From sequence record PV540240.1: DNA of 40,473 bases; one strand, written 5' to 3'. Shown here piece after piece: positions 39,912-40,473 of the stretch. Made by a program: the position numbers and the translations under genes. A model generated the notes under the pieces. The model searched no databases. It saw only the letters and a program-made list of their open reading frames with translations, and was not told the DNA's origin. The DNA comes from Escherichia phage BUCT788. Numbering within the stretch: position 1 is the first letter of the stretch; each line of letters starts with the position of its first letter.

Positions 39912-40381
39912 TGACTCAGAAATATAGACTTAAGGTTGACCGCCACGGGTGGCCTAAAGGTGCTATCGTTACGAAATGTGCGAAAGACCCGTTTTCCACG
40001 GTTGGAAGTACCCTGGTAGAATCCTCCGAGCGTGGCTACTACAAGCACGGTAGCGCGGGTCATAACACGCAGCCTGACGGAATGTGGGGAGCATGGGTTT
40101 TAAATGCATATCTTGAGGAAATTGTAGAGGATAAACCTCAAGTCCTGCCAGCCTCAAGTGTCCCTCCTGTCACCGTTAAACGTGAAGTCCTGACCATCGA
40201 CAAGATTGGTGTAGGCCAGACGTTCATCGTCCACGGAAAGCCTGAAGAAGTTTACGTGAAGATTAGCAACTCACACGTCTTCAACCATAAGCGTCTCCAG
40301 ATGCACACCACGGACGCACAGCGCTTCACCCAGCACCTGAATCTAGTGGTCGTAGAATTGGTGGTGTACAATGGTAAGTAA
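39911..40381 (+). CDS. Hypothetical protein (156 aa) between endonuclease I and lysozyme
   Basis: ATG 39911 overlaps the endonuclease stop (TGATG) with an AAAGGAG RBS; no T7 counterpart recalled at this position. Confidence 0.7.
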   Translation: MTQKYRLKVDRHGWPKGAIVTKCAKDPFSTVGSTLVESSERGYYKHGSAGHNTQPDGMWGAWVLNAYLEEIVEDKPQVLPASSVPPVTVKREVLTIDKIGVGQTFIVHGKPEEVYVKISNSHVFNHKRLQMHTTDAQRFTQHLNLVVVELVVYNGK

Positions 40382-40473
40382 GGTACAGTTCAACCCACGG
40401 TCCCGGACTGACGCTATCTTCGTTCACTGTTCGGCTACCAAGCCAGATATGGACATCGGGGTAGAGACCATCC
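40347..40473. repeat. 127-bp exact duplication of window positions 1..127 (circular wrap-around)
   Basis: 40347..40473 is identical to 1..127 and contains a second, truncated copy of the lysozyme start. Confidence 0.9.

Follow-up and report, generated by a model that had tools for sequence, protein, structure and literature searches.

The two ends of the Escherichia phage BUCT788 sequence (PV540240.1) carry the same stretch of DNA. This raises the question of whether the duplication is a property of the virion DNA or a product of the assembly, and where the genome of this phage really ends. The whole stretch of 40,473 nucleotides, called the window here, was analysed to answer both.

Duplicated ends and the seam between them

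Direct comparison of the window ends gave 100% identity between positions 1-127 and positions 40347-40473. When all lengths from 1 to 1999 were tested, the suffix was equal to the prefix at one length only, 127. Removal of one 127-bp copy from 40,473 leaves a unique length of 40,346 bp. The same bounds and the same unique length had been given in a preliminary description of this DNA, and the end comparison with its sole overlap length bears them out. The probability that an exact 127-nt match is placed at both window ends by chance is about 4^-127, and chance as the source is effectively zero. The other repeat families revealed by a whole-window repeat search are 50 nt or shorter and imperfect, and they are mostly the 11 phage promoters.

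The seam between 40346 and 40347 (equivalent to 40346 and 1) is located inside coding DNA. It cuts off the last 35 nt of a hypothetical ORF of 157 amino acids (39908-40381, plus strand). This ORF matched phrog_16385, a family of unassigned function, with an E value of 3e-93 and has a homologue in K1F (YP_338104), and a Pfam search of it gave no match. Only 24 nt separate the seam from the ATG, at position 25, of the gene 3.5-type N-acetylmuramoyl-L-alanine amidase, the T7 lysozyme (25-483, plus strand). A cut at the junction between the lysozyme gene and its upstream ORF had also been described before; the Pfam match of 25-483 (Amidase_2, E 3.7e-16) and the annotations of K1F and phiYIO1-1 agree with it. 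The endonuclease I gene (gene 3) occupies 39459-39911, directly upstream of the hypothetical ORF. The seam therefore cuts an ORF located between gene 3 and gene 3.5, and not gene 3 itself. Relative to these genome features, the break point is arbitrary. Copy 1 of the duplication (1-127) covers the 3' end of the hypothetical ORF (35 nt) and the 5' end of the amidase gene (103 nt). Judged from sequence comparison, copy 1 would be genuine sequence that is single-copy in the real genome, and copy 2 (40347-40473) would be redundant, an assembler k-mer overlap. The whole window was scanned for Rfam families (gathering threshold) and for tRNAs with zero matches, so structured RNA explains neither the seam nor the end region discussed below.

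A sequence built across the seam was aligned to relatives. In K1F, one alignment block of 1,400 nt runs over the seam, and in the whole-genome map it is part of a block of 7.5 kb. One alignment block also crosses the seam in phiYIO1-1. Two independent contigs in public collections were picked up by a 38-nt seam-spanning pattern, which matched only relatives in IMG/VR and the JGI metagenomes. An exact 40-nt pattern taken from the repeat region had no match in IMG/VR. Look-ups of identical proteins gave no match for the tail spike or the seam ORF, and for the amidase the sole match was in a different Logan contig of 38.9 kb. The JGI contig Ga0172378_10243673 aligned across the seam in one block with three small gaps, and the IMG/VR contig IMGVR_UViG_2974574648_000001 aligned in one gap-free block. 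In relatives at 94-96% identity, the 127-bp block is single-copy and internal. The single blocks across the seam indicate that the closure of the circle is correct and that the 127 bases occur once in real genomes. As a separate observation, the seam ORF has as its 5' half a mosaic patch (39916-40136) that is unaligned to phiYIO1-1 and to the JGI and IMG/VR contigs; the flanks of this patch show 91-97% identity to the same three sequences.

Identity and completeness of the genome

The first 25 kb of the window was searched by megablast against 50,697 phage records. It showed 94-96% identity over 95-98% of its length to K1F-like coliphages, including phiYIO1-1, PR_Kaz2018, K1F and others, and the second half of the window gave likewise such relatives. 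The closest record found is phiYIO1-1 (PP079210), which covers 97% of the first 25 kb with about 96% identity. When the window is rotated to position 30254, it is collinear with K1F (NC_007456 / DQ111067) over K1F bases 1-39,704; 91.7% of it aligns, at 85-98% identity, and the gene order is the same throughout. The gaps in this whole-genome alignment are small cassette differences, and no module is absent. Since the collinearity extends from end to end with cassette gaps only, the claim of a complete genome holds. The earlier view of the window as a complete, circularly permuted genome is thereby upheld, as the rotated window is collinear with K1F throughout and passes over the seam in one block. 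By its sequence, the window is classified as the complete genome of an ordinary Kayfunavirus (K1F-like; Autographiviridae, Studiervirinae).

The gene set and gene order are T7-like, and the promoters are all on one strand. Pfam identified a single-subunit, T7-type RNA polymerase (RNA_pol and RPOL_N) as well as endonuclease I, the Amidase_2 lysozyme, and a T7-type terminase. The T7-group phage promoter TAAACTATCACTATAGG is present in 11 copies, all on the plus strand. The small subunit of the terminase (gene 18) is encoded at 26284-26547 on the plus strand (phrog_1351, E 1e-34). The ORF of the large subunit (gene 19, T7 type) spans 27772-29559 on the plus strand and was assigned by PF22530, Terminase-T7_RNaseH-like (E 5e-38), and by alignment to K1F. 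The K1F alignment places its true start probably near 27829.

Several insertions and replacements were observed along the genome. Between the terminase genes, two HNH endonuclease ORFs (26610-27011 and 27435-27821) flank an Rz-like spanin gene. They matched phrog_99 and related families with E values down to 9e-40, and the second overlaps the nominal TTG start of the terminase ORF. Both are missing in K1F and account for much of the extra length of the window; both are probably homing-endonuclease insertions. Another HNH ORF (4833-5228) interrupts the DNA polymerase gene (region 2696-5530). The K1F gene is interrupted likewise, and its gp5 annotation joins two pieces around the HNH gene. An Rfam scan of this DNA polymerase/HNH region at the gathering threshold gave no group I intron and no other RNA family. 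In the early genes, the segment 31033-32418 has no nucleotide similarity to K1F. The first 500 nt of this segment are overlapped by an ORF of 167 amino acids (31026-31529) that belongs to phrog_11084, of unassigned function, and gave no match in a Pfam search. This ORF occupies the place of the ocr-like anti-restriction gene 0.3 of K1F, and the segment is possibly an alternative anti-defence cassette of the early genes. K1F and the window have in common the endosialidase-type tail spike region and the HNH ORF of the DNA polymerase region. On the other hand, the window differs from K1F in being permuted, in holding one collapsed repeat, and in its unique length of 40,346 bp versus 39,526 bp. 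K1F has neither the two HNH ORFs beside the spanin gene nor a 4-bp insertion found in the terminal repeat of the window, and its early region differs from 31033-32418.

The predicted terminal repeat and the elements around it

The left end of the genome was predicted from the start bases of related records. The first bases of K1F, EcoDS1, Penshu1, SH3, and phiYIO1-1 all align to position 30254 of the window, where the sequence opens with TCTCACAGTTCAAG, and the GA2A record begins one base to the left of the equivalent position. When the predicted repeat was compared with all phage records, the records of about a dozen distinct phages were found to open at the base aligned to 30254 or up to 3 nt away from it. 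Among these phages are K1F, YZ1, LS2, LS3, ECG4, PR_Kaz2018, Penshu1, EPr2, EcoDS1, CR44b, and GA2A, and several of the records opening there annotate the stretch as a terminal repeat. The preliminary description had placed the true left end near 30254; the aligned start bases make this position exact. In a multiple alignment including K1F, EcoDS1, Penshu1, and GA2A, the terminus TCTCACAG and most of the repeat are invariant, and the end region as a whole is 88-92% identical to those of relatives.

The predicted direct terminal repeat is present in the window as a single collapsed copy at 30254-30437 (plus strand), in the non-coding gap from gene 19.5 to the early promoters, where it aligns to the end repeats of relatives. 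The guides were the exact 178-bp repeat of K1F, the 178 bp annotated as 'terminal repeat' in EcoDS1, the PhageTerm repeat of Penshu1, GA2A, and the repeat of SH3, which is 184 bp in the record and 183 bp in the paper. The K1F repeat, cited elsewhere as 179 bp (PMC4925675), aligns with about 90% identity from its first base (TCTCACAGTTCAAGAACC) at 30254 to its last (GAGTCTC) at 30436. The right edge is less sharp than the left one, as the relatives' records differ by up to 5 nt. The repeat terminates in GAGTCTC in K1F, in GAGTCTCT in EcoDS1, and in GAGTCTCTATCT in SH3, and the corresponding edge in the window is 30436-30441. Position 30437 was adopted as the right edge by analogy with T7 and EcoDS1. 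With this edge, the repeat measures about 184 bp, and the virion DNA is predicted to be about 40,530 bp long. From this homology, the biological ends of this phage are predicted to be 30254 on the left, with the terminus TCTCACAG, and about 30437.

Among the comparators, the Citrobacter phage SH3 (KU687349) is the strongest. The virion ends of SH3, SH4, and SH5 have been fixed by run-off sequencing (PMC4925675), and the run-off left end of SH3 aligns base for base to 30254. Its end region is only about 83% identical to that of the window, and its repeat of 183-184 bp reaches 4-5 nt further into the TATCT motif. The ends of Penshu1 are fixed ends predicted from reads by PhageTerm. The phiYIO1-1 record opens with TCTCACAGTTCAAG and ends with GAGACCACA, which correspond to 30254 and 30253 of the window, and it holds one copy of the repeat. 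It differs from the window in that it was deposited as 'circular' with 40,520 bp, is already rotated to the biological start, and has a partly divergent ORF upstream of the amidase gene.

Some peculiarities of the repeat sequence were also observed. At about 30322-30326, inside the predicted repeat, the window has the 4-bp insertion GTGC compared with all aligned relatives. A 22-nt stretch of the repeat, ACGATAGGTCTAGGCTATGGCT at 30369-30390, recurs with 95% identity 310 nt downstream at 30679-30700, where the second copy overlaps the A1-like early host promoter described below. In the Providencia phage EPr2 (OM256482), the terminal-repeat sequence is annotated twice in the first 680 nt (1-179 and 501-679), and four places in 216Ecol046PP (PP328844) match it. 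These extra internal copies look like repeat mis-assembly in the two deposits.

All of the accessory end elements of the T7 type, namely the phiOR counterpart, the flanking arrays, and the edge motif, are present around the repeat. Upstream of it, one of the 11 phage RNA polymerase promoters lies at 29651-29672 (plus strand), in the same position as phiOR in EcoDS1 and T7. It is downstream of the terminase gene and directed at the genome end and junction. It is followed by the last ORF before the right end, a gene 19.5-like ORF of 52 amino acids (29857-30015, plus strand) in the position of EcoDS1 gp19.5 and T7 gene 19.5; a PHROG search of this ORF gave no match. Directly after it, an inverted repeat forms a stem-loop with a 12-bp stem (30048-30090, plus strand) about 165 nt before the terminal repeat, with a DNA folding energy of -11.3 kcal/mol and a z score of -3.1. 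This stem-loop may be a hairpin, in RNA or DNA, with a link to end processing, or a 3' structure of the transcript.

Two arrays of short repeats flank the terminal repeat. The upstream array (30178-30215, plus strand) is composed of one CCTACGGT and two CCTACAGT (30192-30215), and it would sit just inside the right genome end, before the right copy of the terminal repeat. The downstream array (30474-30564, plus strand), to the right of the left copy, is composed of five CCTACAGT and is also found in SH3 and EcoDS1. The 8-mer CCTACAGT occurs 13 times in the window versus 1.9 expected; seven of these copies flank the repeat and none is inside it.

Directly after the repeat, there is a motif resembling that of concatemer junctions (CJ), TATCTGTA (30437-30444, plus strand), the counterpart of the T7 class II pause/termination core ATCTGTT. 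The motif is kept in K1F, EcoDS1, Penshu1, GA2A, and SH3, and EcoDS1 annotates a 'concatemeric junction' there, at its positions 177-184. TATCTGTW is not enriched over the whole window, with three copies versus 2.7 expected. The significance of the motif rests on its position and conservation and not on its number. The longer junction motif TATCTGTAT (30437-30445) is common to K1F, EcoDS1, Penshu1, GA2A, and SH3, and its seventh core base is A. In T7, any base change in the class II signal ATCTGTT is reported to abolish its function. Either K1F-type RNA polymerases use a different core, or pausing at the junction is not conserved. A pausing role of the ATCTGTA junction in K1F-like phages would be an extrapolation from T7.

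Downstream of the repeat, the host promoters annotated in EcoDS1 at 469-505 and 609-647 served as a guide. Alignment to them located an A1-like early promoter for the host RNA polymerase at 30677-30708 (plus strand; TTGACT, a 17-nt spacing, CTTAAT) and a second conserved early host promoter near 30815-30850. A consensus scan of 29560-31030 for sigma-70 promoters and terminators performed no better than on shuffled sequence and missed these early promoters. At about 30850-30860, the window has a deletion of the stretch that corresponds to EcoDS1 nt 690-810 and includes the third host promoter annotated there, so that only two of the three early host promoters of EcoDS1 are conserved.

The overall arrangement can be compared with that of T7 (NC_001604). 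The T7 terminus TCTCACAGT and the stretch CCCCCATAGG, both in the first 35 nt or so of the repeat, are identical in the window. The exact T7 repeat of 160 bp is followed by ATCTGTT from nt 161, and the repeat of the window is likewise followed by ATCTGT. As in the window, T7 has arrays on both sides of the repeat, phiOR and gene 19.5 upstream, and host early promoters downstream. Its CCTAAAG copies are found upstream of the right repeat and at nt 175-332, which is the counterpart of the downstream array. However, the array unit of T7 is CCTAAAG instead of CCTACAGT, and T7 has copies also inside the repeat. T7 has ATCTGTT as its junction core where the window has ATCTGTA, and the identity of the repeats is low beyond the first 35 nt or so. 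In SH3, both the CCTACAGT array after the repeat and TATCTGTAT at the repeat edge are found as in the window.

Origin of the duplication and its meaning

The 127-bp duplication is, with high confidence, the k-mer overlap left when a de Bruijn assembler prints a cyclic path as a linear sequence, and the real ends of the genome would be 30254 and about 30437. The most likely assembler is SPAdes at k=127, an identification drawn from the number 127 alone, which is the largest k of SPAdes. End overlaps of 127 bp are described in a methods paper as a routine artefact of SPAdes contigs (PMC5923482), and one genome announcement trimmed a 127-bp overlap from a SPAdes assembly (PMC8104045). This known artefact consists of an exact prefix equal to the suffix at an arbitrary position, and no observable difference from the present case was seen. 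A probable assembly artefact had been suggested from the overlap length before; the single-copy state of the block and the collinear junction in K1F, phiYIO1-1, and the JGI and IMG/VR contigs now support it along with the length typical of SPAdes.

The duplication would arise as follows. The real molecule would be a linear T7-type genome whose two ends carry one and the same direct terminal repeat of about 184 bp. By analogy with T7, head-to-tail concatemers would form by recombination or replication, with a single repeat at each junction. Transcription that begins at the phiOR-like promoter would then enter the junction with its ATCTGT motif. Cutting by the terminase and duplication of the repeat at packaging are carried over from T7 as well, so the packaging mechanism as a whole is proposed by analogy, and the physical ends of this isolate are inferred by homology. 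In phages with exact repeats, one repeat per concatemer junction is duplicated during packaging, and assembly of their reads yields artificial circles in which the coverage of the repeat is doubled (PMC5000459). In the present phage, reads from the two repeat copies would be indistinguishable, and the replicating concatemers would hold one copy per junction. The assembly graph would thus join the right end to the left end through one collapsed repeat. Since a repeat of about 184 bp exceeds k-1 = 126, a graph at k=127 would close cleanly into an unbranched cycle. This cycle would be opened at an arbitrary place, here in the coding DNA just before the lysozyme gene, and printed from that start with an overlap of length k.

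An artefact of another origin, such as manual circularisation, an overlap-layout or long-read assembler, or a coincidental trimming, is very unlikely. Long-read and overlap-based assemblers seldom leave an exact overlap, and they favour no particular length, which counts against such an origin. In addition, 127 is the exact overlap that has been reported for SPAdes contigs (PMC5923482, PMC8104045). An artefact of another assembler would alter nothing biologically.

Headful packaging would give a different meaning to the circle. The population would be truly permuted and terminally redundant without fixed ends, and the circle would reflect biology. Phages of this kind also assemble as circles with a k-mer overlap, and the 127-bp overlap of a T1-like phage was read as headful (PMC8104045). 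However, the large terminase of the window has the T7-specific RNaseH-like domain and is not of the headful type, and K1F-type terminases cluster with those of phages packaging short exact repeats (PMC5582158). Furthermore, the relatives with which the end region shares 88-92% identity have fixed ends, and such ends were established experimentally in SH3, SH4, and SH5 (PMC4925675) and predicted by PhageTerm in Penshu1. Headful packaging is thus highly improbable for this phage.

The last explanation, a real direct terminal repeat of 127 bp on a virion DNA running from 1 to 40473, with the packaging site moved to the gene 3/3.5 region, can practically be dismissed: exact repeats at contig ends are commonly taken as the signature of a complete phage genome and 127 bp differs from the 160-190 bp repeats of the T7 group by no more than a factor of about 1.5, but the block is coding and overlaps two ORFs, positions 1-127 are without the TCTCACAG terminus, the flanking short-repeat arrays, and the ATCTGT motif, relatives at 94-96% identity have the block once and internally, the length is that of a known SPAdes artefact, and the canonical end region at 30254-30437, together with every accessory element, is intact and highly conserved. 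A genuine 127-bp redundancy produced by a moved cutting site or a switched mode of end generation, with the ancestral end region kept as a relic, is just as hard to credit.

The assembler overlap at k=127 therefore stays the preferred origin, and the duplication is almost certainly an assembly leftover and not a biological feature. Its value is one of curation only. The record needs to lose 127 bp, down to 40,346 bp, and to be opened anew at 30254. Provided that its ends are confirmed, it should also receive the repeat of about 184 bp on the right, for a length of about 40,530 bp. Left untrimmed, the record would have an inflated genome length, and the ORFs of the lysozyme region would be split and duplicated in its annotation. 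In addition, the duplication could pass as a true terminal repeat in tools that take end repeats for phage termini. T7-type repeats and their collapse into artificial circles are already well documented, and the finding touches no open biological question. As read from its sequence, the genome-end structure is that of a textbook T7-type terminal repeat in an ordinary new isolate or contig of Kayfunavirus.
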